From Desulfatiglandales bacterium (GTDB lineage: Bacteria > Desulfobacterota > DSM-4660 > Desulfatiglandales > Desulfatiglandaceae): a stretch of DNA of 64,000 bases. This document shows, piece after piece, positions 10,937 to 33,507 of the stretch (position 1 is the first letter of the stretch; every line of letters begins with the position of its first letter). The position numbers and the translations under genes are program-made. The DNA lies in the NCBI GenBank assembly GCA_963662465.1, contig OY759599.1:1568001-1632000 (forward strand), read 5' to 3'. The notes under the pieces were generated by a model. The model worked only from the letters and a program-made list of their open reading frames with translations. It made no database searches and was not told the DNA's origin.

Positions 10937-11432
10937 TCAGGTATTCTCGGCATACTGATTTTCGAATTTGACCTTCAGGCCAAGCCCTCCCCACCAGGTA
11001 ACCCTGTTGAGCCCACGTTCAGAACGACTCTGCAGAAGACGACCAATCGCGGACTGGAGTTCTCCCTCTCCCATGTCCAGATAGGTAAGTTCGAGATGGT
11101 CTCCACGTTGACGAATTTTACAGTTGTGCCTCCCAAATAGCAAGTATCGAAAGGTCGATAGTGTTCTCTTGTATCCTGCTGAATCTCTGACAAACTTTTC
11201 ATCCAGGGACTGGAGGAAGTTCTCGTAGGCTAGCCTGGCAATCTGTACGCAGTAGAAGTTGGTCTCTATCTTCTCTGGATCTTTACCCAGGATGTGATCT
11301 ATGAAGTAGCTGTGGATCAAATCCTTTAGCCCGTTTTCGATGGGCCAGCGTAGCCTGTATCTCTCCAAGACTTCTCGATTCGAGAGATCTTGAAAAGTCG
11401 TTCCGAAACAACGCACATCACCTGTCTTCTTG
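10937..11432 (-). pseudogene. Outer-IS transposase, fragment 4 (C-terminus)
   Basis: YRLRWPIENGLKDL = Y-R-E-K catalytic E motif. Confidence 0.85.
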
Positions 11433-13230
11433 CAGCAATTCCCGGTCAAGAATTTACTCACAGAGTTTGAAAAACATATTTCAAAAACAAACCCTGAGAT
11501 CAGATCCTTTTCAGAAAAATTGTATTAAATCCACTATTACCTCCCTCGATTTCTTGCAGGTTGAGCTTCTTTGACAAGAGTAAGAGCATAAAAGCACGAG
11601 TTAGGGCAGAGATATCCATTTCCGGAATCTCCAGTTTTTTATTAATGAGAGCATTTTTGTATGCGAACTTGGGCATGACAAATTTAACCACTGTTATATA
11701 GAATAACTGGCGCTTGAAACTTTACGCCATAATAGAGGGCTTCATAGAGCATCCTCATCGATTTGAATTCAAAATCTCTAAACAAAGCTCTCATCCGTTC
11801 CCACAATTCCCTTTTTGAGCCGAGTTTATGCCATGCGGCTATAAATAGAGGGCAACAAAGCTGTTGAGTTTGATCCACCAAGAATGCCAGCATCATGAGC
11901 ATCGCAAAAACAACACTCAGATTCTTCTTGCCGAGCCCGTAGTTGTGTTCAAAATGATATCCTTGGTTCTTAAGAGTATTGAAGGTTTCATTTTCGATCT
12001 TCCATCTCGCACGGCCGCCTCGCATTAGCTGGTATGCATTGTCCTTTCCTATTAAAAAATCTGTCACCCAACTAAAATGTTTTGTTTTTTTCGGTGTAAT
12101 TTCCCAATATTCCAGAAAGTTAACCAGCATATTCTTGTTAGAGGCATTGAGAGGTACCTGGTTAATAAATCGGAAACGATGTATTTTTTCCGGATCCTCT
12201 TTATCGACCAATTCGAATTCAGTGACGTCACCATTTATCCGCGCTTGTTCGACGTGATTAAACAAGAAATGGTGATCTCCTTTTTTAACTCCCAGAATAT
12301 AATGAAAATTTTGCTTTTGTATTTCTTCAATGTGGGGTGCATTCGAACTTAACGCGTCCTCTGTTATAATGATAGGCAGATGGGGATGCTCCTCTTTTAG
12401 CTTTTGCAAGAAACGTTTCGCGGCATTACGCTCACAGTCGTTCTTGCTTTGGCCATCCTGCTTGACTATGAATTCCGGAGCAAGCGGAATGACCTCTTTG
12501 AAATCCGGATGGACAATTGCTGCCCCCAACATCTGCTGATAATAGGTTTTTTCGCCGGTTTTTTTCGATACTTTTACCAAACAACTATCAGAGGAAAGTT
12601 TCTTCGATGAGAAGAAACCCGTTCCATCCAAAGATAGAAGATAACAACCTTCGAAAAATACCATACGTTCAAGCACCTTTCCCCTTTGCAGTTCCCAGAA
12701 GATATTCCTATACGGTTTCCGAAGTTCTTCTGCGAGCACTTCATCAAGAATGGTGCGCATCGTACTGTCACATGGGATCTTTCCAATATGGTATATGTTC
12801 CCAAGATTACTATCGGTTTTTCTTCTTTCATCAAAGGCAAGCAACGATGGCTCCTTGAGCGAAAACATTGCAAACCCGGACATCAAGGCATCCGCAATAG
12901 TAATATCGGGATCCTCACGGCAGTCAGAGACTTCAGAAAAATCTTTATGCAGACGCTTGAAAATTGCATCTGCATTAAGATGCTTGCGAACTCCAATCTT
13001 GCCTCTCTCTTTTCTTCCTTTTTGGCTTCTGATTCCCATAGGCAGTAATCATCGGCCAAGTTGATCTGAAAGTCCAGCTTTTTCTGAGAATTGCCAAAAA
13101 AATTCCTGTTTTATTTTAAAAATTGGAGAAAAAAGCCTTTTCAGGCTATTCATTCAACGTAAAGCTTTACGAAAAGGAAATGCCAAAAGGTACTGTCCTA
13201 GCGCCTTTAGAATCTAAGCGGGAATTGCTG
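11433..13230 (-). mobile_element. IS element, 1,798 bp, probably ISNCY (ISDol1-like group)
   Basis: TIR CAGCAATTCCCG at both ends; 9-bp TSD GTCTTCTTG at 11424-11432 and 13231-13239. Confidence 0.88.
11684..13039 (-). CDS. DDE transposase (intact, 451 aa)
   Basis: SLDGTG, TEDAL, GRARWKIENETFNTLKNQGYHFEHNYG. Confidence 0.92.
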   Translation of the reverse strand: MGIRSQKGRKERGKIGVRKHLNADAIFKRLHKDFSEVSDCREDPDITIADALMSGFAMFSLKEPSLLAFDERRKTDSNLGNIYHIGKIPCDSTMRTILDEVLAEELRKPYRNIFWELQRGKVLERMVFFEGCYLLSLDGTGFFSSKKLSSDSCLVKVSKKTGEKTYYQQMLGAAIVHPDFKEVIPLAPEFIVKQDGQSKNDCERNAAKRFLQKLKEEHPHLPIIITEDALSSNAPHIEEIQKQNFHYILGVKKGDHHFLFNHVEQARINGDVTEFELVDKEDPEKIHRFRFINQVPLNASNKNMLVNFLEYWEITPKKTKHFSWVTDFLIGKDNAYQLMRGGRARWKIENETFNTLKNQGYHFEHNYGLGKKNLSVVFAMLMMLAFLVDQTQQLCCPLFIAAWHKLGSKRELWERMRALFRDFEFKSMRMLYEALYYGVKFQAPVILYNSG

Positions 13231-13809
13231 GTCTTCTTGTTCCTTTTGACAACCAAGTGGAGTACCTTGGCGAGATTGTTCAGATCAAACCGTTTTCCCG
13301 CGATCTCGTATTCCTTACCGAAGGCTTCCCATTGGGCTTCGGAAACCACTTCACGCATCATCTGATCAACTCGCTTGTTTCGCTTCATGCACATGATCAC
13401 ATCAACTTGGGAGAACTCATCGACGACAAAGTAGTCGATTACCGGAAAGCTTGTGTATTCACTGTCCATGTATATCTCACGAATCGCATCGCGCCCCAGG
13501 ATCGGATAAAGGTTCTTTTCGCAGAACTCGCGGACAATCCTTGTTGCTCTGCTCGAACCATTGCAGAATGCTATGTTGATCAGAACGTCCGTGTCGAGGT
13601 CCCAGATAACGTGGGGCCGAAAGCCGGGGCAAATATCGCCGGCGGAGTTGGGTCCTTTGCCAATTTCCTCTGCGTCGGGTTGGTTGCCGTAGAACTCTTT
13701 GAAGTGGAAATCCTGTGCGATCCTCTCTCCCCGAATCAAACCCAGGTCCCGCGCCCTGGCGGCCACGTCATTTCGAAGATCCTGGAGGTGTTCGAACTTC
13801 ATATCAACA
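13231..13809 (-). pseudogene. Outer-IS transposase, fragment 3
   Basis: IAQDFHFKEFYG (D1) and IYMDSEY (D2); in frame with the flanking fragments. Confidence 0.85.
13698..13809 (+). repeat. 112-bp perfect direct repeat, left copy
   Basis: Identical to 21294-21405; abuts the IS66-like TIR. Confidence 0.95.
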
Positions 13810-13930
13810 GTGTCCTTTCTGCAAGCCTGCATAGGGCAAATTTTTTCATTTTTTTTTGGGTGGCCGGAAGACGCTAGGTGGCGAGCTCCGTTATCCGGCG
13901 TCTTCTGTCGATCTGATTATCTGTGAGTTA

Positions 13931-14170
13931 CTAAGACTGGGAATTTAGATTTTGCCTGTAATTCCAGGGAAGCCAGTTTTCGGGGTTTACCTTTACCAGC
14001 TCGGGATTTTTGTGAATGGTCAGGAGATATTCGTACGGATTTTCTCCGTTCATGGCACAGGTCTGAATAAGGCTCATAAAGATGTCTCCAATGAGGGCGC
14101 CATGCTCTGTTTTGTAAAACAGGGAGTTTTTTCTGTGAAGAATGGCCTTTTTCAAAGCCCTTTCGCAGAT
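13931..14170 (-). pseudogene. tnpC: IS66 TnpC C-terminal fragment
   Basis: CERALKKAILHRKNSLF...SLIQTCAMNGENPYEYL...WLPWN. Confidence 0.9.
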
Positions 14171-14306
14171 GTAATGCCGACTCCCGGATTATGCCGCATT
14201 ACAAGAATTTTGTGGGATTATTCGTGCCTTGAAGTAGTTGCTGACGCGGCATAATTTTTGTGGGATCTTCGGTTTGGCAATCCCGCCAAACGAAAGGAGA
14301 GACCAC

Positions 14307-15551
14307 ATGAAAACATTCAGTAATTTCGTATCGAAAAACAACCCGCATTCGAACCTATGTCAAACCCATGTCAACTCCTTCCTATCACACCTTCGCACTC
14401 TGGGGTATGCAGAACGGACGCTACGGAAAAAGCGTCCAGTTGCTGCCTCTTTTGCCCGATGGACAGTGGGGAAGCGGCTTACTGTAAACGATCTAAACGA
14501 ATCCCATCTGACCGAATTCGTGGAGCGTTTGCACAAAAGGCAAAAAGCCCGGATAAAATTCGAAATGGCTGCCCTGCGGCTTTTTCTCAGCTATCTGCGC
14601 CAAGAAGGTGTGGTTCCAAATCCTCCAATACTTGATGCTTCACCCGTGGATGATTTTAAGCGGACCTACATAGAATACCTGCGAAAGGAGCGAGGACTCG
14701 CCGAAAACTCAATTCTTGTTTATTCGCCTTTCATCAGTGATTTTCTCAATGATCGGTTAGCCCAAACCGGTTGCATCTCTTTCCATGCATTGGATGCCCT
14801 GACAATCCAAAATTTCCTCCTCGATCGCATTCAAAACCGGTCGAGAGAATACTCGAGGCTTCTGGCCGCCGCCCTCCGATCATTCTTGCGGTTTCTTTAC
14901 CTTCGCAAAGAAATAACAATTGATTTTTCCCTATCGATTCCCAGAGTCCGTAAATGGCATCAGTCCGAGGTAATTGGCTTTCTAACCCCCGACCAGGTAG
15001 AAAGGATCCTTTCGTCAACCGATCTGTCGACGCCACGTGGAAGACGCGATTATGCCATTTTGCTTCTTCTTGCACGACTCGGTCTGCGTGCGGGAGAGAT
15101 AATCACGATAGAACTCGGTGACATCCTCTGGCGGATCGGGGAGATCGTTATTCGCGGCAAGGGCCAAGTACAGGACCGACTACCATTGGTCTCAGATGTC
15201 GGAGATGCTTTAGCGGTTTATCTACGTCAAGACAGAGGAGATAGCGTATCGCGACGGGTTTTTCTGCGAATGATTGCTCCACGCGTTGGCTTGGCCGGCC
15301 CAGGGGCGATTGGCCATATTGTACGCCTTGCATTTGCCCGAGCCGGCATATGTGCTCCGAGCCGTGGCGCAGCCCATCTCTTCCGCCACGGTCTGGCCAC
15401 CAGAATGATCCGCCAGGGTGCCTCCATCGCTGAGATCTCTGAGGTTCTCCGTCATCAATCCCAGAGTTCCACAGCCATTTACGCGAAGGTCGATTTCGAG
15501 ACACTCCGTGAGATTGCTCCGCCTTGGCCGGGTCAAGGAGGTGTGCGATGA
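14307..15551 (+). CDS. ritA: Tyrosine recombinase RitA
   Basis: LGLRAGE, RGKG, HLFRHGLA, VLRH, TAIYAKVD; AGGAGA RBS. Confidence 0.92.
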   Translation: MKTFSNFVSKNNPHSNLCQTHVNSFLSHLRTLGYAERTLRKKRPVAASFARWTVGKRLTVNDLNESHLTEFVERLHKRQKARIKFEMAALRLFLSYLRQEGVVPNPPILDASPVDDFKRTYIEYLRKERGLAENSILVYSPFISDFLNDRLAQTGCISFHALDALTIQNFLLDRIQNRSREYSRLLAAALRSFLRFLYLRKEITIDFSLSIPRVRKWHQSEVIGFLTPDQVERILSSTDLSTPRGRRDYAILLLLARLGLRAGEIITIELGDILWRIGEIVIRGKGQVQDRLPLVSDVGDALAVYLRQDRGDSVSRRVFLRMIAPRVGLAGPGAIGHIVRLAFARAGICAPSRGAAHLFRHGLATRMIRQGASIAEISEVLRHQSQSSTAIYAKVDFETLREIAPPWPGQGGVR

Positions 15552-16489
15552 CTGCAATCCGTGACGCACTTGCACGGTATTTAACAGTCCGCCGTGCCCT
15601 CGGTACTCGTCTACAAGAGCCAGCCACGACACTTGGCTATTTTGTAGATTTCCTTGACCTTCAGGGAGCAAAATTCATCACCACTGATCTCGCCCTTCGT
15701 TGGGCGTGCCAGCCAAAGCATGTGCAAAGAGCGACATGGGCACGCCGGCTTACTATGGTCAGGCAGTTTGGTGCTTGGCTGAGTGCATTCGACCCGCGAA
15801 CGGAAGTACCGCCAAAACGGCTCCTCAATGCCCGTCATCGGCGCAGTAAGCCCTACATCTATACCGAACAGGAAATAGAACATCTCATGATCGAGGCCGC
15901 TTTGCTCCCGTCACCGATGGGATTGCGCGCATTAACCTATGTGACGCTCATAGGTCTTCTTGCCGTTACGGGTATTCGGCCAGGTGAAGTGGTAGCTTTG
16001 AATCTGTCTGATGTGGATCTAAAGAACGGTATTCTTGTAATTCGGCAGACGAAATTTGGAAAGTCCCGTTTTGTTCCGATTGACGATTCGACATGTTCCG
16101 CCCTTTTGGATTATGCAAATCGACGCAATAACTTTTACACACGTTTTCAGACCAACAGTTTTTTTGTCTCCGAACGAGGCACAAGACTAAGTCTTGGATC
16201 CGCCCGACGTACATTCGCCAAAGTATCATGTGCTGTCGGTCTTCGAACTGCAAAAGATGGCTGCCGAATCGGTCGCGGACCAAGGCTTCAGGATTTTAGG
16301 CATACGTTTGCAACAAGAAGAATTATCAAATGGTATCAGGCCGGATTGGACGTGAACAGAGAGTTGCCAAAGCTCACTTCCTATCTCGGCCACTCAAACG
16401 TCAGTCATACTTATTGGTATATTGAGGCGGTCCCGGAGCTCCTCCAGCTCGCTTCCGAGCACATGGGCCGGCAAGGAGGTGCACAATGA
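15548..16489 (+). CDS. ritB: Tyrosine recombinase RitB
   Basis: TGIRPGE, TKFGKSR, QDFRHTFA, YLGH, TYWY; ATGA overlap with ritA. Confidence 0.92.
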   Translation: MTAIRDALARYLTVRRALGTRLQEPATTLGYFVDFLDLQGAKFITTDLALRWACQPKHVQRATWARRLTMVRQFGAWLSAFDPRTEVPPKRLLNARHRRSKPYIYTEQEIEHLMIEAALLPSPMGLRALTYVTLIGLLAVTGIRPGEVVALNLSDVDLKNGILVIRQTKFGKSRFVPIDDSTCSALLDYANRRNNFYTRFQTNSFFVSERGTRLSLGSARRTFAKVSCAVGLRTAKDGCRIGRGPRLQDFRHTFATRRIIKWYQAGLDVNRELPKLTSYLGHSNVSHTYWYIEAVPELLQLASEHMGRQGGAQ

Positions 16490-17481
16490 AAGCCTCCAGC
16501 TTTTCATCACTTCTCCAGCGTTTCTTTACGGACAGATTGCTCGCACAGCTTGGCGCCAGTCCGCACACTGTTGCCGCATACCGGGATACCTTCCGTCTGT
16601 TGCTTCGCTTCGCCGCGAAACACTTCGGGCGTTCGCCTTCTGAACTGCGCATAGAAGAGCTCGATGTTTCTTTCCTGTGCAAGTTTATTCAACACCTTGA
16701 ACTTGATCGCTGTAATTGCATCCGGACACGGAATAACCGCCTTTCCGCCCTGCAAGGTTTCTTTCGGTATGTGTCCTTCAGTGAACCCGCACTGTCATTG
16801 CACTGTCAGAGGGTTCTGGCGATCCCTGCCAAACGGTACGAGCGCCGTCCGGTTGAGTTCCTGTCGGATGAAGAAACTGCCGCTCTTGTTGCAGTTCCCG
16901 ATTCAAAAAAATGGATCGGCAGGCGTGACCGAGCGCTCCTGTTGCTCGCCTTACAGACAGGATTGCGAAATAGCGAAATCACATCGCTTCAGTGCAAGGA
17001 TGTGGAACTCGGCACCGGTGCTCACGTCCGTTGCCTCGGAAAGGGTCGAAAGATGCGATGTACCCCTTTGCGCCCTGATGTCGTCGCAGTGCTGAAGAAA
17101 TGGTTAAAGGAGCAAGATGGCCATCCACAAGATCCTCTCTTCCCAAGCTCACGCGGTTTACGTCTCAGTGCAGATGCTCTCCAGCGACTCGTTGCCAAAC
17201 ATGCAGCCATGGCGAGTCATACATGTCCATCCCTAAAAGGGAAAACAGTTACACCCCACACCTTGCGGCATTCGGCGGCCATGAGCCTGCTCCGACGTGG
17301 TGTTGATCTGACCGTGATTGCTCTCTGGCTCGGGCACGAATCAAATGAGACAACACAAATCTACTTGCATGCTGATATGGGAATTAAGGAGCAAGCCCTT
17401 GCCCATACCACTGCAAGTGGTTCCATACCTGATCGGTATCTTCCTGAAGACCCTTTGCTAACATTCCTTGAGAGCCTTTGA
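16486..17481 (+). CDS. ritC: Tyrosine recombinase RitC
   Basis: TGLRNSE, GKGRK, TPHTLRHS, WLGH, TQIY; ATGA overlap with ritB. Confidence 0.92.
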   Translation: MKASSFSSLLQRFFTDRLLAQLGASPHTVAAYRDTFRLLLRFAAKHFGRSPSELRIEELDVSFLCKFIQHLELDRCNCIRTRNNRLSALQGFFRYVSFSEPALSLHCQRVLAIPAKRYERRPVEFLSDEETAALVAVPDSKKWIGRRDRALLLLALQTGLRNSEITSLQCKDVELGTGAHVRCLGKGRKMRCTPLRPDVVAVLKKWLKEQDGHPQDPLFPSSRGLRLSADALQRLVAKHAAMASHTCPSLKGKTVTPHTLRHSAAMSLLRRGVDLTVIALWLGHESNETTQIYLHADMGIKEQALAHTTASGSIPDRYLPEDPLLTFLESL

Positions 17482-17615
17482 TTATGCCGATTGAAAGAGC
17501 CATGAGAATAAGGGGTCCAACGCAGTTTCGACCAGTTAAAACGGATAAAATTGGCAATACGGCATAATCCGGGAGTCGGCATTATATCTGTTATGCCGCT
17601 CGCGGCATAACAGAT

Positions 17616-18080
17616 ATTGTTGTCAAGGGGCGCTCCAGGAACTTCCAGGAACCGGGTTAACGCCTTCCAGTGATTCAGCATATACTGAATTGCCTTTCCC
17701 AAACCGGAATTCGGTTCCACGAGTTTTTCGTCCAATTGCTTGTTGAGCCAGCAATACAATTTATCCATCAAGGGTTTGCTTTCAGCCTGATGGAAGGCCA
17801 GACGCTCTTCGGGTGACATGTTTTCGTCCCTGGCAATCTGATCATTGTGATACACTTTGGCAAGGGTATCGATCACAAACCGGCACTCTTCTGGAAAGCT
17901 CGGGGCGACATCCACGAAGTATCGGCGGGCATGGGTCAGGCAGTTTGCCATAATGACATCCAGGTCCTCCGATGAATTTCGAGACAAGGCATCGCACATA
18001 AGCTGAGGTGGACTGAGACCGGTCAGGCGATTTTCAAGAAGCGCCTTCAGATTTTCACCCGCGTGATTTCTGCCGGTAAA
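17616..18080 (-). pseudogene. tnpC: IS66 TnpC middle fragment
   Basis: FTGRNHAGENL...MCDA...CLTHARRYF...LGKAIQY...PLDNN. Confidence 0.9.
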
Positions 18081-18661
18081 CTAAACAACCACCGTCTTGA
18101 AGACGGTGGGTTTAAAAGCGCGGACTGAAAGTCCAGCAAGACCGGCTTTAGCCGGTAAATTATTCGATATCGAAACGATCGTTTGGGTCTTTTTCAAAAT
18201 GGTGCTCAAGATACTCTTGAATCATGTCCTTGGTAAGCTCGCCAGATGTGACACAGAAATACCCCCGCGCCCAGAAATGCTTACCCCAGTATCGTTTCTT
18301 CAGGTGTGGGAATTCCTCAAAGATCTTTCGCGACGCCCTTCCCTTCACCCTTCGCATTATGTCCGAAGGGGAAATATTTGGTGGCGCCGAAACGAGAATA
18401 TGCACGTGATCCTTGCTGACCACACCACGCACTATCTGGATTTCGAAACGTTCGCAGGTCTGTCGCACGAGTTCCCGAACTCTAAGGGCAACATCACCCT
18501 GCAAAACGTGATAGCGGTATTTGGTTACCCAAACAAAATGATATTCAATCTTGTAGCGAGTGTGGCTTCCTTGACGGTATTCCATGCCAAGTATTATAAG
18601 CCAACCGCTAGCAAAATGCTACCCGCCTGAAAGGCGGGGGTTTTAACCTTTTCCAGAAACA
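18081..18661 (-). mobile_element. IS200-type element (tnpA only), 581 bp, inserted in IS66 tnpC
   Basis: Subterminal hairpins CCCGCC-TTTCA-GGCGGG and CCACCGTC-TTCAA-GACGGTGG; no TSD; inserted 3' of TTTAT; removing it restores tnpC VLY|FTG. Confidence 0.9.
18160..18585 (-). CDS. tnpA: IS200/IS605 Y1 transposase TnpA
   Basis: YHFVWVTKYR, DHVHIL (HUH), FWARGYF, catalytic Tyr in QEYLEHH. Confidence 0.95.
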   Translation of the reverse strand: MEYRQGSHTRYKIEYHFVWVTKYRYHVLQGDVALRVRELVRQTCERFEIQIVRGVVSKDHVHILVSAPPNISPSDIMRRVKGRASRKIFEEFPHLKKRYWGKHFWARGYFCVTSGELTKDMIQEYLEHHFEKDPNDRFDIE

Positions 18662-19555
18662 ATAAAGAACCGCCTGGCGGTCATCCATTTTGGATATAAC
18701 ACCGGTGGTAAAAATCTCTTTTCGACCGTTTTTGGTTTCACCTTCCTTCATGAGGCTCAGAACTTTTCCCGTCGTATCGTCAATGTGGAACAACTCCCCC
18801 TGTGCGGATTGTTTCAGTAGTTCGATATACGGCCCTTTGGCCTCCAAACCCAATGGCTCAACGATACCCCACTGGGTTGATGCGGGAACCGGAACACCCA
18901 TCATGGCTTGAAACTGCTGCAACCGATAGAAAGGAACGCCGTTGGCGTATTTTAGAAGGGCAATGGAAACCGCAACCGTTTCATCATGTTTCTGAGTTCC
19001 CATATCTTCAGGAGGCGTTGCGGTAAAAATTTGGCCGCACAGGTTGCAGCGAAGCTTTTCCAGTTCATAAATCGTTCCCGTTAAAGGCGGCGAACCCTTA
19101 ATCCGGATTAACTTTTCGGGAACTTTTAACCGATACACTTTTCCCCTGGGACATTCCGGACAGGGGTCACCATGTTTGAGACTCTCGTGGCTTATGAACT
19201 TTCTTTCGGCGCCGGTAAAAGCCGAAGCACCGTTTCGACCATGGCCTTTCGGTGGGGGGTTGCCGCCTTTTGGACCGGGATCATCTTCCGGATTATCGCC
19301 GTCTTCGGAATCGGCGTCATCTTCCGGATCATTAAACACTTTATCTTTCTTTTCGGATTTTTGCCCGAACAAGAGGTTTAGCAGCCGCTTGATGGATGCG
19401 GCCTTCTGGTCCAGTACCTGACTCAGGGCTTCAATGGTATCCGCCATGACCTTGATAATCTCGTAGTCGGATTCGGAAACCGCCGGTTTTATCCTTTCAA
19501 GAAGGGACTTGACGTCTTCGGGGGTTAATTCGAGTTTTTGGGGTTTATCCGGCAT
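18662..19555 (-). pseudogene. tnpC: IS66 TnpC N-terminal fragment
   Basis: LFGQKSEK, CPECPRG...CNLCG zinc finger, VPFYRL, FHIDDT; the rejoined fragments give a 532-aa ORF. Confidence 0.9.
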
Positions 19556-20423
19556 GACATAAATACTCCCGAAAGTCTTTACCCATGGGATACCCCCAGA
19601 CGGCCTTTATGGAACGATTGGGTTTACCGGTTTGATCGTTTTTGCCTCTTCCGGTGGTATCTCCCAGATAGACCCAGTTGGCGGCTTTATAACAGGTGCC
19701 GGAAAACAAGGTTTTATCAACGAATGTCTCAAGATAACAAATAGGATGGCGGTATTGCTTTTGCCAATCCTTTGAAATACGCCGGGCCATTTGGCTCAAT
19801 ATATGAGACGCCAGATATTTGACCCGAATCCAGGGCAATATGAGAAGCCGGGTATTATAGGCCATCAGCGACAGGTTCTTCATGCGAACATCAGGAGACC
19901 ATCCGATAAACTGATCCCGGCTTTTGATATGGCGTGGCGGTGAACTCCAGGCCATGCATGCAATGGGATTTTCCCCTGCGAAAACAATGTATTTCAGATG
20001 TTCTCCGACAGGTCTGCAATAACCCAGGTAATGGTACTGGTCCACCAAGCTGTTGAACAGTTTCTCCAAAGGGGTGCGGCGTACCTGAATAAACCGCAGT
20101 GGGCGAATCGAAATCACCGATGTTGTCAGAGGCTTTTCGGGAACGGGGATCACTTCAGGTTTTTTCTGTTTTCCCGATGGATTGACCGGAGGCCGTTTCC
20201 TTTTGGGCAGCTGAATATGCCCCGACCGGTGAAGCTGCAACATCAACCCCCGGCATACCATATCCCTTGTAACACCATTGGGCTGCACCCAGTTCCATGC
20301 CTTACACAGTTTCACCGATAATGCATACCGGCTGTCTTGCGGGTTAGACGCGATCAACTCCTTTATAAAGGAGATGTCTTCTCGGTTGTAGTTCTTGCCT
20401 CTGTATTTGATGATCGTTTCCAT
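19545..20423 (-). CDS. DUF4338 (DruA-like domain) protein
   Basis: LCKAWNWVQPNG...YHYLGY...RDQFIGW...NTRLLILPW...LASHILS...LETFVD...GTCYKAANW...TTGRG. Confidence 0.82.
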   Translation of the reverse strand: METIIKYRGKNYNREDISFIKELIASNPQDSRYALSVKLCKAWNWVQPNGVTRDMVCRGLMLQLHRSGHIQLPKRKRPPVNPSGKQKKPEVIPVPEKPLTTSVISIRPLRFIQVRRTPLEKLFNSLVDQYHYLGYCRPVGEHLKYIVFAGENPIACMAWSSPPRHIKSRDQFIGWSPDVRMKNLSLMAYNTRLLILPWIRVKYLASHILSQMARRISKDWQKQYRHPICYLETFVDKTLFSGTCYKAANWVYLGDTTGRGKNDQTGKPNRSIKAVWGYPMGKDFREYLCHAG

Positions 20424-20476
20424 GGCAAAAACATAAGCATGTATGTTTTGAACGCAAGGGGGGGGACCTGGTTTTT

Positions 20477-20824
20477 TCAGGGTAAGCTAATTTTTTTCCA
20501 TAAAGGCGCGGCTCCTTTGGGGTTGGTGTTCCATAAAATCATCTGCAGTTCATGGGCGGCCAGCTGCTCCAAACGGCCATTTTCCGGCCACCAGTGAAAA
20601 CGACCACTCGACAGCCGTTTTTGGCAAAGCCAGAATCCCTGGCCATCATACCCGAGAATTTTGATGGTGGTCCCTCGTCTATTACGAAAAACAAAAATAT
20701 ACCCGGAGAAGGGATCTGATTTTAAAACACTGCGGCAAATGCCGGCCAGGCCATCAATGCCTTTTCGAAAATCCACCGGCTTCACCGCCACAAGTATCCG
20801 CATTTGGGGGCTGATCTGCATCAT
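20477..20824 (-). CDS. tnpB: IS66 accessory protein TnpB
   Basis: PVDFRKGIDGL...FVFRNRR...IKILGYDGQGFWLCQKRL; ATGA overlap with tnpA. Confidence 0.93.
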   Translation of the reverse strand: MMQISPQMRILVAVKPVDFRKGIDGLAGICRSVLKSDPFSGYIFVFRNRRGTTIKILGYDGQGFWLCQKRLSSGRFHWWPENGRLEQLAAHELQMILWNTNPKGAAPLWKKISLP

Positions 20825-21216
20825 GACTGTTGCCTCCAAAATGTTTGGATCAGGGATGCAACATCAATAGGCCCCTTCACATGGACTTTCATTCTGGCGC
20901 CTGCTTGTTCAAGCTCCAGATTTACTTCAACCGAATCAGCTGGTGGGTTGAGTGGTGGCAATTCTATGAATGTGGGTGGAAGAAGTTCTTCGGTCGGGCT
21001 GTTCGGAATACTTTCAATGCGATCCTTCAGGTCACTGTAATTCAGGTGCAATGCTTTGGAAAGTTTATTAATGCTGAAATTATCCACCAGGGAAACAGCA
21101 GCATCCCATAAGGACTCAGGAATACGGTCCCGTTTCTTGCGGTTTTTGCGCCAGTCGGAAAACTGGGCTTGTACTGCTTCGAGACGTTGCTTCTCTTTTG
21201 ATTTTTTCTTCGCCAT
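20821..21216 (-). CDS. tnpA: IS66 accessory protein TnpA-like
   Basis: WRKNRK...IPESLWDAAVSL HTH and FIEL motif; first gene of the IS. Confidence 0.75.
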   Translation of the reverse strand: MAKKKSKEKQRLEAVQAQFSDWRKNRKKRDRIPESLWDAAVSLVDNFSINKLSKALHLNYSDLKDRIESIPNSPTEELLPPTFIELPPLNPPADSVEVNLELEQAGARMKVHVKGPIDVASLIQTFWRQQS

Positions 21217-21293
21217 GGGCTATCCTCCTGAAAGGTTTTAGCCCAAGTTAAGTCCCCCGCGCAGCATTTCATGCGGGCTTGCCGAAAGGACAC

Positions 21294-21405
21294 TTTGAAG
21301 TGGAAATCCTGTGCGATCCTCTCTCCCCGAATCAAACCCAGGTCCCGCGCCCTGGCGGCCACGTCATTTCGAAGATCCTGGAGGTGTTCGAACTTCATAT
21401 CAACA
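21294..21405 (+). repeat. 112-bp perfect direct repeat, right copy
   Basis: Identical to 13698-13809. Confidence 0.95.
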
Positions 21406-22100
21406 AACCCATCGTACAGGGCCGTTTTCCCCGGAAAAACACCGACGCCGGCGGCAACCGCCACAGAGCGGTCGCTGTTTCTATTGAGGTGTCCCACCGT
21501 CTCGTATCCAGCCAGGATACGGCAGACGTTCAAGAGGACAAGATTGGTGATCTCACTGCCCTCGCCCCTCTTGGGAGCGTAGACCTGGAGAGCCTCGCAG
21601 ACCCCCAGATCATCAATGAACTGCGCAAGCACAATCGGGCCAGGATCGCAAACCGCAAATGCTCGGCTCTGCATGCGATTCAAGAAATGTGCAAAGTGTG
21701 CGTTCAACTTCTTCGGAACCCGAAACTGGCCTGCCTCGGCCGCATCCTTTGCTGTCTTGAGAAGCGGCGCCGGTTTCTCCGGTACCTCTTCTCCCCAAAG
21801 ACCTCGCAATCGTACAGGCCTACGTTCCTTCTCCAAGAGTTCCCAGTATCGCAGAACTTCGTAAAGCGCCGATCGGGAACAGCGCAACTCCATCCGTGCC
21901 ATCAGCTCATCCAGACTGAAACGCGGATGTTCCATCTTCTCCTCAATGACACGTATTTCCAATTCATCGGAAATTTTCCCTCGACCCCGACCGGGCTGTA
22001 TCCAATCCACCAACCCCCACACACCGTAGTTCCGAAAGCGATACAGGTACTTGTAAAAAGTTGGTCGCGACATGCCATAGCGGCGTATTGTATCCCCTAA
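21294..22100 (-). pseudogene. Outer-IS transposase, fragment 2
   Basis: LGDTIRRYGMSRPTFYKYLYRFRNYGVWGL HTH, running into the duplicated VDMKFEHL...FHFK segment. Confidence 0.85.
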
Positions 22101-22167
22101 CTTGAAAGCATAGGAATTTCCATTTTTGATTTGGCATATCAAATAGTTGTTGCAGTGATGGCATTAA

Positions 22168-23365
22168 ATGTGTCAAAAAAAGCACATTATGCATATGCCA
22201 TCAAACCAAAAAATTGATAAGGAGACTTTCCGGACGATTTTTATTGATCATTGGGAATCATTCAAAGAGCATCATCCAGGGTATGATAATTCGCAATATG
22301 AAGATCCGGTTCAGAAAATGCTTGGTTGCGGCAAGGAAAGCGCCGGATATAGCGAGCACCGGTGTGTTTATTGCGGTGGTGATGTTCGCCGGATAGGTTT
22401 TAGTTGCAAGAGCTGTTTTTGTTTATCCTGCGCCAAGAAATATGTTGACGATTTTGTCAGTCAAGTGAGTAGGGTGCTTCATGGGGGCATGAATTACCGT
22501 CACATTGTTTTGACAATTCCCGAGCAACTGAGAATCGTTTTTTATAAGGCTCGAAATGATGGACGTTTGTTATCGGCTTTTATGAGATGCGGGTACGAAT
22601 GTTTGGAGGATGTTGTCGGAACGGTTCTTCGGCGGAAACTGAAAATAGGAACGATCGTCGTTGTTCAAACGCATGGTCGATCCGGTCATTATAATCCGCA
22701 TTTGCATATCATCATGACAAGCGGTGGGATAAATGAAGATCTGTGCGGTTGGTTTGATTTAAGGTTCTTCAAGTATGAGATTATACATAAGAAATGGCAG
22801 TATCATCTATTCAGAATGCTCAAGTCCCATTTTAACAGCAGTGCGGTCGATAAACTTATTGATGAGCTGTGGAAAAAATACCCTAAAGGTTTGGTAGCCA
22901 ATGTGAGCAAGGGTAATGTTCCTGAGACATGTGGGGGTCTGGCGCGATATTTGGCGAAATATGTTGCATCTCCTCCGATAGCTCTGAGACGGATAATCAG
23001 TTATGATGGCCAATATGTTACCTATTGGTACAATGATCACATGACAAAATCCAGGAAGGTTGAAACCGTGGAAGTGGATGTTTTTATCGGTCGAATGGTT
23101 CAACACATAATGCCCAAAGGGTTCCAGCGGGTTCGTTATTATGGGCTACAGGCTACGAAAACTTTTAAGAAATGGTCGGAAGTAATACGGAAAGGGATGA
23201 AGGCTTTGGGGCGTGGGATTAAAGGAACGTATCAAGTCGTAAAAGCGAAAAGATATCGAGAACGTTATAAGGAGATCAGCTCTCAAGATCCTTTTTTGTG
23301 TCGTTATTGTGGCCATGAAATGGTGCTATGGAAGATATGGCATCCAAAATATGGAGTTTTATATG
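22168..23365 (+). pseudogene. IS91-family Y2 HUH transposase (interrupted near the C-terminus)
   Basis: Zn-binding SCKSCFCLSC, HIVLTIP, YNPHLHII (HUH), RYLAKY (Y2), QHIMPKGFQRVRYYG. Confidence 0.9.
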
Positions 23366-23727
23366 CTTCAACGCTAATCAAAACTGAACCAAGTTTGCTA
23401 ATGGAAATTGAACCATTGGCTGTCACCGCCGGTGAGTACGGCCCTCAGGTATAGCGGACGATGAGGGATCCATAAGTGGCGGCAAAGGAGTCGTTGATGT
23501 AGATTTACTTTTCAATAAATTTTTATAAAATCTATTTTCTTTGGATTTGGTTTTCTTCTTCCAAGACAGAGGCTTGGTTAAGTGGAAATGCGATTTACTT
23601 TGTAGAATGGATGGTGAAGGCCCGAAGTAGCCGCTTCGGGCCTTCTTTTTTGACCACCGGATAGAGCCGGAAGCCACACACACGCCAATTTTATATAAGT
23701 GTGTTTCCGGCCAATTGCAAGGCCGGA

Positions 23728-24144
23728 ATGATGGGAGATGTCCTTTTAAGAGTGGTTCAATGCCGATGTTGTGGTTGCTTTTTTCACGTCTGTCGGTCGT
23801 GTTGGCGTGGCCAGGCCTATTGTGGGGAACGATGTCGCAGGATACGCCAAAGACAGCTGCACCGGAAAGCTCAGGGGAAATACCGCAATTCGAAAAAAGG
23901 GAAAGAGCGCCGTCGTTTGTACGAAAAAACAAAAAAATCCAAAAAAAATGGACTGAACCCTGGTGATGATAGTTCAACACCTCAAAAAGACTGTGATATT
24001 GAACCCAAAAAGCGGTCGGGGAACCGACCCAGCTGTCTTTTTTGCGGGTCGATCGGGGTTGTTGTGGACCATTTTCCTCGCCGTGCTTATGCAGGGAGGG
24101 TTTTTTCAGATGTAACAGGCTTTGAGAAAACCCCATATCCATGA
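23728..24144 (+). CDS. Cys-rich zinc-finger protein (IS21 passenger)
   Basis: CRCCGCFFHVCRSCWRGQAYCGERC...CLFCG; start codon uncertain. Confidence 0.65.
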   Translation: MMGDVLLRVVQCRCCGCFFHVCRSCWRGQAYCGERCRRIRQRQLHRKAQGKYRNSKKGKERRRLYEKTKKSKKNGLNPGDDSSTPQKDCDIEPKKRSGNRPSCLFCGSIGVVVDHFPRRAYAGRVFSDVTGFEKTPYP

Positions 24145-24156
24145 CAGGAGAAAAAA

Positions 24157-24576
24157 ATGATCAAAAAAAGAGTCCTTTTTCCCGAAAGAGTGCGTGTCAT
24201 CAATGGAAGCTTCGGCTTTCTGGAGCATCGTTTTTTGAGAAACGGCTTTTGGGAGAGCCTGAATCATCATGAGCTGCTGCTCTACATTTTTCTGGTGTTG
24301 GTATCTGACAAAAACGGGCTCTCTTATTATGGTTACGACAGAATCTGCCGGATTTTAAAGGTGCATTTGGATCAATATATCGATGCCCGCGATGGCTTGT
24401 TGGACAAGGATCTGATTGGGTTTGATGGCCGTCTGTTTCAGGTTCTTTCGCTTCCCAGACGTCCTGTGATTGTGAAACAGGTAAAGGAGATCCGGCAAGG
24501 AAATTGGGTCAGTCTTGGAGAAACCATAGAGGAAATCTTTCGGGAGACTGGGTATGGAATCCATCCGAACCGTTGA
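24157..24576 (+). CDS. Winged-helix-like DNA-binding protein (IS21 passenger)
   Basis: SFGFLEHRFL...LLLYIFLVLVSDKNGLSYYGYDRICRILK; AGGAG RBS. Confidence 0.65.
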   Translation: MIKKRVLFPERVRVINGSFGFLEHRFLRNGFWESLNHHELLLYIFLVLVSDKNGLSYYGYDRICRILKVHLDQYIDARDGLLDKDLIGFDGRLFQVLSLPRRPVIVKQVKEIRQGNWVSLGETIEEIFRETGYGIHPNR

Positions 24577-25438
24577 TATTCATTTGCTGGAGTTGCGTTA
24601 CGCTCATTGCCGGATAATGAATCACCAGGCTTTAAAGCGATTGAGGGATTCCATCGAAACTTACGGGCAGATCGTTCCGGCCCTGGCTATTGAAGAAAAA
24701 GACAAACTGATTCTGATTGATGGCTACCTGCGTGTTCGAGCGCTTTGTGCTTGTGGAAAGGACCGGATATGTGTCCAATTCTCAAAAGAAAACGAACAAA
24801 ATGCCATGTTTTCGCTTTTAACCAAGGCCAATGAACGGCAATGGGAAGTCATTGAGCAGTCTGTTTTACTTCAGGAATTACATCGGCGTTTTGGGTGCAG
24901 CCTCTCCCATATTGCAACCCGAATAGGGCGCGACAAGAGTTTTGTAAAACGGCGGCTGGACCTGGTTGAAGCCCTGCCGGAAAATATTTTGAGAACCGTG
25001 ATTGCAGGCTCACTTTCAACCTGGGCTGCCAGCCGTGTCATGGCGCCGTTGGCGCGCGCCAACGGTGAAGACGCACAAAAACTGTTGGCCCACCTGGAAA
25101 AAGAACCTCTATCCACAAGGGAACTGGCCCGTTTCTACGCACATTACCAGAAAAGCAACCGGTCTGTTCGAGACCACATGCTGGAAAATCCATCCCTTTT
25201 CATAAAAGTTCTCGAACAAAGAACCCAGTCTAAACAAGCCAAAGAAGTTCATGATGGACCGGAAGGCAAATGGTTCAAGGATATTGAAATGGTATATGCG
25301 GTTCTCAAACGTCTGGTGAAAACCGTTTCGCATGTCCATTACCCAAAAAGCGATCAGTTGAAGAAACAAACGCTCAAAACCTGGGTGAAAAAGATAGAAA
25401 AACAAGCACTGGAACTCAAGAAAGCGACCCAATTATGA
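24554..25438 (+). CDS. ParB/RepB/Spo0J-like protein
   Basis: LRDSIETYGQIVP...LIDGYLRVRAL ParB-N motif, followed by HTH SLSHIATRIGRDKSFVKRRL. Confidence 0.85.
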   Translation: MESIRTVDIHLLELRYAHCRIMNHQALKRLRDSIETYGQIVPALAIEEKDKLILIDGYLRVRALCACGKDRICVQFSKENEQNAMFSLLTKANERQWEVIEQSVLLQELHRRFGCSLSHIATRIGRDKSFVKRRLDLVEALPENILRTVIAGSLSTWAASRVMAPLARANGEDAQKLLAHLEKEPLSTRELARFYAHYQKSNRSVRDHMLENPSLFIKVLEQRTQSKQAKEVHDGPEGKWFKDIEMVYAVLKRLVKTVSHVHYPKSDQLKKQTLKTWVKKIEKQALELKKATQL

Positions 25439-26817
25439 TCCGACAATCCAAAAAAGATGCCATTGTGGAATTGAAAAAAACCGGCATGAGTTTGCGCGAC
25501 ATCGCCAAAACCCTGAAGGCCGGTCGCAATACCGTCACGAAGGTTTTAGATGATCATGACGAAGAGGCGGTACCCCAAAGGAACTCCCGGTATGAAGAAC
25601 ATGTCCCGTTGATCCGCGAGCTTTTCAAGGAATGTAAAGGAAATGCCGTGCGAGTAGCCGAGGAACTGGAAAGCCGCCAACAGATCAAAATCCCTTATCA
25701 GAGTCTGACCTGGATTATGAGAAAGTACGAGATCCGGGAACGTAAAAAAAGACGGGCGGGCCAATACCATTTTAAACCCGGTCAGGAGATGCAGCATGAT
25801 ACGTCACCCCATCTGGTTGTCATTAATGGGAAAAAAATGTCGACCCAGTGCGCGTCCCTGACCCTGGCCTTTTGCCGAAGGATTTTTATTCAGTATTACC
25901 CCTGTTTTACCCGGTTTGAGTGCAAGGTTTTCCTAAAAAAAGCATTCGAGTTTATGGACGGGGTGTGTTCCCGGTGCATGGTTGACAACACCAATGTTAT
26001 TGTGGCCGGCGGCACCGGGCCTGATGCATTGATTGCGCCTGAAATGAAATACTTCGGCGATATGTATGGAACCCGGTTTGAGGCCCATGCTGTAGGAGAC
26101 GCCAATCGAAGTGCCCGTGTGGAAAGGCCTTTTCATTTTGTGGAAAACAATTTTCTTCCCGGTAGAACATTTGTTAGCTGGCAGGATTTGAACCGGCAGG
26201 CAATCGACTGGTGCCGGAATACAAGCGATAAAAAGTTTAAACGGGCTTTAGGGATGACGCCGGATGAGGCCTATGTCATTGAAAAGCCATATCTCATTGA
26301 TTTACCGGCATACCAGCCGCCAGTCTATGTGGCAGAACACAGGGTAGCCGATGTTCAGGGATATGTGCACTTGGACACCAACCGCTATTCAGTCCCTGAA
26401 GCGCTGATTGGGAACTCCCTGGAAGTACAGAAACATTGGCTCAAGGTCATCGTTTACGACAAAAACACAAAAGTGGCGGAACATGACCGCATACTGGATA
26501 AACGCAACACCCGAACAACCCTGCCCGGTCACCATGTTCCCATTCGAAGAAAAAAAGATCCCCGAATCCCTTCAAAAGAAGAACAGCTGTTGACGGGAGA
26601 GGATGCCATCCTGGATGAGTATGTGGCTGAACTGAAGAAAAGAAGTCACGGTCGCGGTGTGGTCAAGTTACGTCGGTTGCTTCATCTGAAACGCACTTAT
26701 CCCGGGGAACCTTTTTTGAAAGCCATAACACAGGCGCTTAAATATGGACTTTTTGATTTGTCGCGTCTGGAAAACATTATTCTCGATTATATCGCGGGAG
26801 ACTTTTTTGATCTATGA
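25435..26817 (+). CDS. istA: IS21 transposase IstA
   Basis: N-terminal HTH, PGQEMQHD, MVDN, SARVERPF, NRYSVP. Confidence 0.92.
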   Translation: MIRQSKKDAIVELKKTGMSLRDIAKTLKAGRNTVTKVLDDHDEEAVPQRNSRYEEHVPLIRELFKECKGNAVRVAEELESRQQIKIPYQSLTWIMRKYEIRERKKRRAGQYHFKPGQEMQHDTSPHLVVINGKKMSTQCASLTLAFCRRIFIQYYPCFTRFECKVFLKKAFEFMDGVCSRCMVDNTNVIVAGGTGPDALIAPEMKYFGDMYGTRFEAHAVGDANRSARVERPFHFVENNFLPGRTFVSWQDLNRQAIDWCRNTSDKKFKRALGMTPDEAYVIEKPYLIDLPAYQPPVYVAEHRVADVQGYVHLDTNRYSVPEALIGNSLEVQKHWLKVIVYDKNTKVAEHDRILDKRNTRTTLPGHHVPIRRKKDPRIPSKEEQLLTGEDAILDEYVAELKKRSHGRGVVKLRRLLHLKRTYPGEPFLKAITQALKYGLFDLSRLENIILDYIAGDFFDL

Positions 26818-27533
26818 AAAAGAAAATTGAACAGTTACTCATTGATTTGAAGTTTAAAGGCATGCTGAAGGCTCTCGAAGAACAGTTGGCTTCGGCTGAA
26901 AAGAACGGTTTTTCCATTCACGAGGTCATCTACAATCTCCTGGCTGAGGAATTACGTTTCCGGCAGGAGCGCAGCATGATCTATCGGGTCCAGATTGCAA
27001 AGCTTCCATGGGAATGGACCCTCAACTCCTTTCCGTTTGATCTTCAGCCGGGAATACAGAAGAGCCGGATCATGACGTTGTCCGGCCTTGACTTTATCAG
27101 CCGAAGAGAAAACATCGTGTTCCATGGAAAAACCGGCGTCGGCAAAACGGGATTGGCCGTGGGGATCCTTCGTCAAGCCATTATTGCCGGGTACCGGGGG
27201 CGTTTTTATAATGTTCAGGATTTGCTGGATCAGCTCTATGCGTCTTTGGCAGATCGGTCCACCCCGAAACTCCTCAATGCCCTTTGCAGATATGACCTGC
27301 TTCTGCTCGATGAACTGGGATACCTGACCCTCAAAAAAGAGCAGATGAACGCCTTTTTTAAACTCATGAAAGATCGCTATGAAGCCGGTCGGTCCACAAT
27401 TATTACGACCAATCTTCAACCTGAACAATGGTATTCGCTGCTTGAACCAAAGGACATGGTCGATGCCTTGCTGGATCGTCTCAACCATCGCTGCATCAAC
27501 ATTCATATTGATGGTCCTTCCCTCAGAAAATGA
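26814..27533 (+). CDS. istB: IS21 AAA+ ATPase IstB
   Basis: GKTGVGKT, LLLLDELGY, STIITTN, LLDRLNH, GPSLR. Confidence 0.94.
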   Translation: MKKKIEQLLIDLKFKGMLKALEEQLASAEKNGFSIHEVIYNLLAEELRFRQERSMIYRVQIAKLPWEWTLNSFPFDLQPGIQKSRIMTLSGLDFISRRENIVFHGKTGVGKTGLAVGILRQAIIAGYRGRFYNVQDLLDQLYASLADRSTPKLLNALCRYDLLLLDELGYLTLKKEQMNAFFKLMKDRYEAGRSTIITTNLQPEQWYSLLEPKDMVDALLDRLNHRCINIHIDGPSLRK

Positions 27534-29595: not shown

Positions 29596-29694
29596 TGTTT
29601 TTCACTGTACAAATCCGGATGCTACTCTGAAAAGGCTGACAGATCAATCCTTCACTTTTTTTGAAAATATTGAGATTCAAGAATAATATAGGAA

Positions 29695-30085
29695 GTCTTC
29701 ACTTTTGGATTAACAATCTGAAAAGGGAGCGAACACAAGATATAGGGGTCTCAAACATTTGTCGAAAGCGGTTTTCAAATACGGACCGGATGCAATATGT
29801 GGCTCATATCACAACGTCGTCTTTGGTTGTGGTACGTTGGAGATATACCCGGTTTCGTTAACAATATAGGAACCACAATATATGGTATGACCGCCCGCTA
29901 TTGGAAAAGCGTTGTGTCGGGTTTGAGAACCGATTAGTGAGCCCAGGACTTACTCTTCCAAAACGGAAGGCCGCCAAAGTTATTGTTCTGTGGGATGAAA
30001 AATCCTTGACGGAACAGTTATATTAGGAAACCTTCACTTTTGGATTAACAGTCTGAAAATGGCGTGACCACAAAATATAGAGGTT
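29695..30085. repeat. Non-coding repeat cluster (module M6 twice, flanking module M4)
   Basis: CTTCACTTTTGGATTAACA.TCTGAAAA near 29697 and 30032; 29862-30020 matches 35660-35820. Confidence 0.8.
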
Positions 30086-30162
30086 TGTTTGTTGTTGACG
30101 TACAAGGGGCATTTCTCTATAGCCTCTCCCAAAAAAAGCAAGGTCTTAACAGACAGATCGGA

Positions 30163-32031: not shown

Positions 32032-32381
32032 AATAGCACCCTCCCAAATTGGCTTTTTTAAAACGGCTTTCGGCTAAATGGTTGAATTAATCTTGTTTTG
32101 CGGCATGCCTCTGTTTTTCAATATTTCCCGCTTCATTATCAGCTTATTAAATAACGTAATAACGTTCAGAAACCCAATCCAGCATGATATCATGTATATT
32201 GCAGTTCCTCTACTCCGTGACGCACAAGGGGAATTTCGCTATGTCCGCCACTCATAAAAAAGGCCTTACCAAAGTGCGGAGGAGATTGGCTGGTCGTGAA
32301 TTGACGGTCCGTATCTGGCCTTCAAATATGTTGGGTTTCCAATAGAAAACACAAAGTATTGGCACCATCAAAAACCTTCAA

Positions 32382-32765
32382 TATGCCTTACTTCTTTGAT
32401 GAGAATATCGCCTCGAATTTGAAAAAATTCCAATCTCACCTTAACGCATTTCCTATGTCAAAACCACAAAATATCGTAAAGCTCAAAAAAACTGTGATAT
32501 CATAAAATTCAGATGGCTTGAACGAACGTTGTTATCATGCCATCTCTCAGGGCCGGCCGCTCTGGGTATTAATTGAGAAACTTCCAACTATCTTAAACCT
32601 CTGAAATTTTGTGATTAACCTTTAATACCTGTACTTTTCGGATACTTGGCGATTGTTGGAGGAATATGTAGGTGTTACGTGATCAAAAAGATGCGGCTCC
32701 CACCCTCAGGCCGCCACCCTCCCGATGAGGATATCACAACCGTTCGGTTCTGATAAATCGGTTTT
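32382..32765. repeat. Non-coding repeat copy B (modules M1-M2-M3)
   Basis: Matches 35362-35640, 33301-33507 and 40032-40190. Confidence 0.85.
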
Positions 32766-32927
32766 AAAGCATGACTTTGAGATGGCCCTTCCACCAACTT
32801 TTTGCCCAACAGACTTATCAGGAAACATGACCAAATATCATGCCGATATCTGAGCTATGGGCTCTTTTCAATAAGAGTTCTCACATTATTGAATTTCTAA
32901 TATGTCAAACGTTGAATGCTAAGACAA

Positions 32928-33218
32928 TTAGCTTGGACCTGAACCCGTTCCGCAACCAGCAGTAACTAATTTGCCGTAGGCGGGGCCGTTTATACAACCA
33001 GTAGAATTCAGGTCGTATGGTAATGTTTGACTAGCACCTGCTCCATCAGTACACCCACGGGGGGTAATTCCGAGCCCAGATGCATCTGCTCCCCACCAAC
33101 ATGTGATACCTCCGACCTCCAGAGCATCATTCCCACCTGTAGCTCCGCTTCCATCTGCACAACACGCACTGCTTGCCATGCTTCCGATATGGCGTAATCG
33201 TGGTTTATCATATTTCAT
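32928..33218 (-). CDS. Cys/Gly-rich RiPP precursor candidate (SynChlorMet ScmA-like)
   Basis: Leader YDKPRL (YxxPxL); five CxxG repeats; AGGAGG RBS. Confidence 0.7.
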   Translation of the reverse strand: MKYDKPRLRHIGSMASSACCADGSGATGGNDALEVGGITCWWGADASGLGITPRGCTDGAGASQTLPYDLNSTGCINGPAYGKLVTAGCGTGSGPS

Positions 33219-33300
33219 TTCGTTTCCTCCTGTTTAGTAAAAAGAACATGCTTAGCATTTTTTTGCATTTCGCGATGTCGGTTCAAATGGCAGAAAAAAA

Positions 33301-33507
33301 GGTATATTGAGAAACTTCCAACTATCTTAAACCCCTAAAATCTTGTGATTAACCTTTAATACCTGTACATTTTGGATACTTGGTGGTTGTTGGAGTAGTC
33401 CCAACCTGATGTGATCAGAAAACTGTCAATTTCATGCACCTTTTAGCCCTCAGTCCGCTCCCATGCCAACGATGATATCACAGGTATTCGACTGCGAAAA
33501 ATCGGCT
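33301..33507. repeat. Non-coding repeat (modules M2-M3)
   Basis: ATTGAGAAACTTCCAACTATCTTAAACC...ACCTGTAC..TT.GGATACTTGG shared with 32572-32660. Confidence 0.85.

Follow-up and report, generated by a model that had tools for sequence, protein, structure and literature searches.

How does an insertion sequence (IS) of the IS66 type come to be flanked by a perfect 112-bp direct repeat of host DNA? The question is raised by a 64,000-nucleotide stretch of a Desulfatiglandales bacterium genome (contig OY759599.1, positions 1,568,001 to 1,632,000; hereafter the window), in which such an element interrupts a gene coding for a DDE-like transposase. IS66 elements typically have GTAA ends and flanking repeats of 8-9 bp, in agreement with the control elements analysed here, and duplication length is regarded as a constant hallmark of each transposase, dictated by how far apart its two active sites lie. 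A sequence-only reading of the window had offered two explanations, namely a subfamily of IS66 that makes long duplications, possibly with the help of its additional DUF4338 gene, or recombination between two insertions 112 bp apart.

A unique 112-bp repeat at the window locus

The 112-bp repeat is real and unique to this locus. The identity of its two copies was borne out over their whole length (coordinates in Table 1), as was the position of each copy directly adjoining one of the two 23-bp terminal inverted repeats (TIRs), which agree at 21 of 23 bases. The exact match actually covers 113 bp, the last TIR base being the same as the base that precedes copy 1. The ends of the element were set by reference to another copy in the same genome (G000; 8.16 Mb in a single contig, C1), which lies at G000:C1:7133218-7138623 and is flanked by 8-bp repeats. 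The 112-mer occurs exactly twice in the genome, as does each of eight 25-mers sampled from it. Keeping one of the two copies does restore a single open host frame over the site, of 459 codons to the first stop, and this frame runs on beyond a second insertion, that of an IS4-like element. The window element is 7484 bp long, or ~3.46 kb once the IS200 and RIT elements inserted in it are subtracted.

Read evidence for the locus comes from contigs, not from raw or long reads. One contig of run X21 begins at position 21376, as a repeat with two exits would predict, and a contig of run X22 spans 21293-22127 without that break. The latter would fit an assembly artefact at the repeat borders, an explanation that we find barely credible, as long repeats were detected in seven genomes, with the site on a genome-length contig in three of them (G000, G096 and G966), the two copies of one such repeat (L309) have diverged to 97% identity, run X21 breaks where expected, and the other repeat families of the G000 assembly show none. 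Specifically, 11 other repeat families of G000, with 128 copies in all, were scored as a control, and none of these copies has a host-derived long repeat. The single hit, of 100 bp and next to a different IS, proved to consist of terminal sequence of that IS and not of host DNA.

The sequence-only reading had also supposed that a long-duplication mechanism would copy target DNA on every jump, which is contradicted by the other copies in G000. The copy at 7133218-7138623 is >98% identical to the window element in the aligned parts, has an intact tnpC gene and is flanked by a perfect 8-bp duplication; therefore, the 112-bp repeat is not made every time. Near-identical copies yielding both 8-bp and long repeats were similarly found in G133, G709 and G966. 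A third full copy in G000 (G000:C1:2490781-2497683) has no repeat, and its tips join two different paralogous ATPase genes. We considered that it might be flanked by a decayed 333-bp duplication, but the two ATPase genes are only 78% similar, with differences beginning at the second base, and the site was scored as having none. The surrounding region (G000:C1:2484000-2501000, L002) harbours tandem paralogous ATPase genes, and the joined flanks read in frame, with ~111 codons repeated. Two more copies in G000 are truncated.

Repeat lengths in GTGTCC-ended elements and other IS66 elements

Relatives of the window element with GTGTCC ends were collected using the TIR pattern (102 genome and 120 metagenome stretches; 401 genomes) and by TnpC searches, which matched 17 of 209, 11 of 151, 10 of 301, 9 of 301, 11 of 123, 2 of 141, 1 of 111 and 6 of 226 genomes in overlapping sets. 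Removal of duplicates left 69 elements with both ends, of which we counted the 32 flanked by 1 kb or more on each side. The 37 elements excluded for a flank of <1 kb (one 8-bp repeat, 36 without repeat) were mostly element-only contigs and mostly collapsed copies. The metagenome scan contributed one scorable site (L202), and viral contigs and phages no usable site. Short non-autonomous derivatives of 212 and 443 bp with the same ends were also detected (L045:9811-10022 and L280:10084-10526).

The 32 elements comprise 14 flanked by 8-bp repeats (one of them with a 7/8 match), one by a 10-bp repeat, seven by repeats of 25 to 431 bp and ten without repeat. The long repeats represent seven independent sites in seven genomes, i.e. 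7 of the 22 scorable sites. They are of 112 bp in the window (G000), 169 bp at L144 (G096, from the same family as the window), 35 bp at L141/L142 (G133, same genus; one site within an 8.9-kb two-copy segment, counted once), 25 bp at L332 (G558, same phylum), 29 bp at L296 (G709), ~73 bp at L309 (G657; two copies 97% alike) and 431 bp at L304 (G966). G709 and G657 are from the family of an uncultured Thiodictyon sp. genome, and G966 is from the class of an uncultured Planctomycetaceae genome. The lengths are scattered (10, 25, 29, 35, 73, 112, 169 and 431), and every repeat begins at a TIR tip. An 8-9-bp duplication is present at 15 clade sites, including the copy of the window element described above, and not at eight sites, including the window. 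Thus, the proposal of a subfamily that makes long, variable duplications has held up: at other copies the repeats are not all of 8 bp, and long ones recur.

Our controls were 48 IS66 elements outside the clade, drawn from four genomes and five plasmid records; seven of these elements have a flank of <431 bp. Repeats of 8-9 bp were found at 25 of them, no repeat at 23, and a long repeat at none. The difference between the clade (7 long, 14 short) and the controls (0 of 25) gave p=0.002 in a Fisher test, a value that is overstated because copies within a genome are not independent. The closest sister group, with GTGAGCTT ends and found in Vibrio, Shewanella and Klebsiella plasmids, has six short repeats, two sites without repeat and none with a long one; it was not found in E. 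coli genomes. In G759 (L368-L383), 11 of 13 IS66 copies with GTGAGCGT ends lack any repeat, a pattern suggestive of adjacent deletion or of extensive recombination.

In a quick tree of 39 TnpC proteins, 24 of the 25 GTGTCC elements are found on one branch (SH-aLRT 96), and the remaining one (L319) is placed, without resolution, beside that branch with the sister group (98). On the basis of this tree, the GTGTCC elements appear to form one TnpC clade. The GTAA ends that the sequence-only reading had named for IS66 are typical only, since other IS66 elements in our set begin with GTGAGC, GTGCGC or GTAGCC. In particular, RefSeq-plasmid elements annotated as IS66 begin with GTGAGC; GTGTCC ends are therefore the mark of a subgroup and do not exclude it from IS66. 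The clade resembles IS66 and IS679 in gene order, TIRs, 8-bp repeats at most copies, and TnpB and TnpC matches above cut-off (for the intact TnpC, L001:1840-3438, NF033517 score 221.9 with a cut-off of 180, and PF03050 E 2e-51). Residues D259, D328 and E456 of TnpC are invariant in 32 sequences, and so are C345 and H348 of a shared C345-x-x-H348 motif. Unlike other IS66 elements, members of the clade have GTGTCC ends, often an extra DUF4338 gene, and long repeats at 7 of 22 scorable sites vs 0 of 25. Furthermore, the loop that follows the second Asp is shortened, with DAL(S/A)RN vs DGY/DAY..Y elsewhere, its length being common to the GTGAGCTT sister group. Altogether, long repeats are very probably a genuine property of the GTGTCC clade.

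The extra gene does not account for this property. DUF4338 is present at 5 of 7 long sites vs 5 of 15 short sites, which could indicate that its product drives a wide cut, but the difference has p=0.17, and the elements flanked by the 29-bp (L296), 431-bp (L304) and 10-bp repeats have no DUF4338 gene, as scored within the element and not in trans. Thus, DUF4338 is not required for long repeats, because they flank elements both with (5) and without (2) it, and 8-bp repeats occur with it; the link suggested for the window is not sustained. The gene is scattered over the TnpC branch, even between close pairs (L296 without, L309 with). Moreover, its domain is given as a GNAT acetyltransferase, and not as a nuclease or a helicase, in the available text of PMC10853773. 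A DUF4338-driven cut is thus extremely unlikely, and the protein is a probable GNAT-fold passenger. It is possibly a DNA-modifying enzyme.

Several other features of DUF4338 were recorded. In L310, L312, L313 and L324, its gene lies outside of, or opposite to, the tnpA-tnpB-tnpC order. Genome-wide, G000 has no fewer than 20 additional DUF4338-like matches, many of them 38% identical and within a multi-copy repeat, which suggests that DUF4338 may ride on other IS families as well. We rejected an assignment to the Druantia defence system, as the gene neighbours are tnpB and tnpC and not other Dru genes. PADLOC gave no match for the window protein and a weak DruA1 match for one of three homologues. 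A single-sequence fold prediction was unusable (pLDDT 40), and neither DUF4338 nor TnpC has a sequence match among solved structures.

Strand transfer at long-repeat sites

The target preference, derived from 353 distinct junctions, is roughly G-R-T-n-n-A-Y-C. We scored the 14 junctions of the long-repeat sites with a profile trained on 311 junctions, test sites excluded. Positions 1-3, next to the tip, score like those of normal insertions (mean 1.06 vs -0.82 for the background, a value reached in 0 of 20,000 draws). As these scores are far above background, the transposase most likely made both joints of the long repeats. Positions 6-8, which form the partner half of an 8-bp site, have a mean of -0.12 vs 0.48 in the training set (p=0.019) and lie between background and normal. 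We lean weakly towards each joint using only a half-site.

The second explanation offered for the window is homologous recombination between two independent nearby insertions, whether in two chromosome copies or in repeated host DNA. Several long-repeat sites do lie in or beside other mobile elements, and the L141/L142 site is within its two-copy segment. Nevertheless, the complete duplicated stretch maps to a single locus in G000, G709, G966 and G096, both copies of the G133 segment hold the same insertion, and two hits within 25-431 bp would have been required seven times, yet never in 48 controls. We therefore disfavour recombination and consider it very improbable.

We incline to an explanation, with somewhat better than even chances, in which the clade's own transposase would uncouple its two strand transfers in one event that host replication would complete. 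TnpC, with TnpA and TnpB, would make two kinds of insertion. In the usual one, both 3' ends would be joined 8 bp apart. In about one-third of the repeat-leaving insertions, the two transfers would be uncoupled: one end would enter a preferred half-site, and its partner another such half-site tens to hundreds of bases away on the opposite strand. This second half-site may belong to the same duplex or, close to a replication fork, to the sister duplex. The stretch between the joints would then be copied to both sides by the replication machinery of the host, through strand displacement or through crossover and dimer resolution. The finding of long repeats at 7 of 22 clade sites vs 0 of 25 other IS66 sites supports such uncoupling.

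The structural model of TnpC (pLDDT 87) is consistent with a transposase of this kind. Its closest fold is that of ISCth4, of the IS256 family (Foldseek E 5e-7; Z 14.1, root-mean-square deviation 6.1, 327 residues aligned), followed by Hermes and P. ISCth4 forms an asymmetric dimer that can carry out joining at one end if the second end is blocked (PMC7780238). Like the clade, ISCth4 and IS256, which move by copy-out/paste-in, make 8-bp duplications. In contrast with it, they have no accessory genes and give a fixed 8 bp in vitro, and with 12-13% identity the likeness is one of fold only.

Several observations weigh against uncoupling. The sample is small and its copies are not independent. 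Lack of a repeat is no rarer among the control elements (23 of 48) than among clade members (10 of 32), and no empty allele or reciprocal deletion was found for any long-repeat site. The weakening of the far half of the target is slight, with p=0.11 vs the 15 8-bp sites, P=0.11 vs the background and p=0.053 in a simpler count, and the near half fits worst at the two junctions of the window (-0.34 and -1.42). ISCth4 gave 8 bp in 5 of 5 sequenced events (PMC7780238). Finally, peptides of IS66 TnpB and TnpC bind the sliding clamp (PMC3971601), which speaks for the model, but a motif scan of the clade TnpC proteins for clamp binding gave no convincing motif.

Alternatively, long repeats might arise in two steps, an 8-bp insertion being followed by re-insertion nearby of ends on sister chromosomes, with a duplication and a reciprocal deletion as products. 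Such events are known for eukaryotic 8-bp elements (PMC3744419), whose transposases (Hermes, P) are fold relatives of TnpC, and they permit any length. In addition, the G000 copy at 2490781-2497683 has a different paralogue at each tip, the arrangement that an adjacent deletion would leave. However, this sequence of events predicts full 8-bp motifs at both junctions, while the match in the far half is reduced (p=0.019 to 0.11), and it alone gives no reason for the 0 of 25 in the controls. We regard it as unlikely.

The transposase might also bind a TIR-like host sequence and join an element end at its tip, fixing one border of the duplication. A TIR-like sequence adjoins the repeat at L144 (8/10) and L142 (7/10), a score reached by ~0.3% of random 10-mers, and the best of 14 8-bp sites tested has 5/10. 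At the window, host sequence in register with the start of the duplication resembles a TIR tip with one gap, a likeness spotted post hoc and equalled by 0.135% of 40,000 random sites. Tandem elements in L035 (9765-9801) and L179 (2830-2892) have head-to-head ends 37 and 63 bp apart, vs a spacer of 6-8 bp in IS256-type circle junctions; these possibly represent long-spacer junctions, or insertion near existing ends. A closed circle was ruled out for L179. Nevertheless, cryptic ends were proposed on the basis of three initial cases, and the five examined thereafter (L296, L304, L309 and L300, and L332 by eye) did not conform. We rejected them as a general mechanism; fitting three sites and failing five, they would explain a subset at best, and even so are improbable.

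Long variable duplications have been described in other contexts. IS1549 and IS1634 make repeats of 8-514 bp, for which the available text of PMC2266710 offers no model as of 2008. The clade shares with IS1549-like elements of the IS1634 family long, variable direct repeats (10-431 bp in the clade). Unlike these elements, which have a single gene for an IS4-related transposase, it has three or four genes, its TnpC matches only IS66 models, and its repeat lengths peak clearly at 8 bp and have a long tail. The clade thus works like IS1549 and IS1634 part of the time, but it is not a member of IS1634. Hybrid element insertion by P and reversed-ends transposition by Ac/Ds similarly yield transposase-made tandem duplications bounded by element ends (alternative transposition, PMC3744419). 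Unlike the clade, P and Ac/Ds are eukaryotic, need pre-existing copies, and yield reciprocal deletions and full target sites. Restriction-modification units also have long, variable flanking duplications (>30 bp), without another mobile element (PMC2853133), in contrast with the clade repeats that begin exactly at transposon TIR tips. The organisation of IS66 and recombination between its copies are described in PMC6778807. We found no literature report of long repeats in IS66, in searches that reached neither ISfinder nor the primary papers on IS66, IS1549 and IS1634, sources that may bear on novelty.

The trait is now found in a family unrelated to IS1634 and in many lineages, beside an 8-bp product of the same element and relatives that lack it. 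The question can therefore be addressed by gene deletion, loop swaps and host mutants. More tentatively, at slightly less than even chances, the transpososome of a multi-phylum IS66 clade may routinely uncouple its strand transfers, one enzyme giving both 8-bp and long duplications in a single insertion. If so, the sister group with 8-9-bp repeats only would be a natural control for the residues responsible, the loop after the second catalytic Asp being a candidate, or for an accessory protein, and the formation of long, variable target duplications would for the first time be open to mechanistic study. Insertions with long repeats can keep the end of a gene or a promoter intact, recombination between the two repeats can take them out cleanly, and insertion-site software limited to short duplications will miss them.

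Genes of the element and its surroundings

The predicted gene order tnpA-tnpB-DUF4338-tnpC was confirmed; the interruption of tnpC in the window copy by IS200 and RIT elements had gone unremarked. The putative tnpA, an open reading frame (ORF) of 131 residues, is conserved at this position across the clade, with no Pfam or NCBIfam match. All three IS66 genes are reportedly needed for transposition, a result ascribed to Han et al. in 2001.

Table 1. Features of the element and of the interrupted host gene (positions in the window)
Feature	Position	Strand	Basis or remark
Host DDE-like transposase gene, 3' part	10937..11432	-	
IS4-like element, 1798 bp, second insertion in the same host gene	11433..13230	-	9-bp duplication
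Host transposase gene, middle part	13231..13697	-	
Host sequence like TIR tip, one gap, in register with duplication start	13681..13697	-	
Direct repeat copy 1, 112 bp of host transposase gene	13698..13809	+	sequence identity
TIR, tnpC end, begins GTGTCC	13810..13832	+	end fixed by 8-bp-flanked copy
tnpC, 3' piece	13931..14171	-	
RIT element within tnpC, three tyrosine recombinases	14172..17616	+	35-bp inverted ends
tnpC, middle piece	17617..18079	-	
IS200-family element within tnpC	18080..18660	-	absent from other copies
tnpC, 5' piece	18661..19555	-	
DUF4338/DruA-domain gene, 292 residues	19545..20423	-	PF14236 E 4e-31; weak Mom match
tnpB	20477..20839	-	PF05717, NF033819, both above cut-off
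tnpA-like ORF, 131 residues	20821..21216	-	position and clade homologues; no family match
TIR, tnpA end	21271..21293	-	21/23 match to other TIR
Direct repeat copy 2, identical to copy 1	21294..21405	+	sequence identity
Host DDE-like transposase gene, 5' part	21406..22142	-	IS91-type end begins at 22105

The RIT element is found at the identical tnpC position in four copies and one 70%-identical relative (the window, and G000:C1 2491138, 4401672, 7143652 and 5169958), and therefore it seems to target the tnpC gene site-specifically. A short palindrome is located past its right inverted end.

The interrupted host gene (window 10937-22142) codes for a single-copy DDE-like transposase of ~620 codons. 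Its matches are weak, to a helix-turn-helix and to the ISH3, IS4, IS1634 and IS1380 models below cut-off, and the gene is interrupted by three further elements. Beyond it, at 22105-27533, an IS91-family element is followed by an IS21-like unit, in which extra small ORFs and a ParB-like gene precede istA/istB. Several imperfect intergenic repeats of 50-120 bp were found at 29689-40336, ahead of genes that include those of a caspase-domain/Lcl protein and an Ig-like protein. Lastly, the 3' end of a gene is repeated at 1792-1973 and 43549-43731, 41.8 kb apart, with 87-89% identity; this repeat possibly marks the border of an integrated island that holds the nest of elements.

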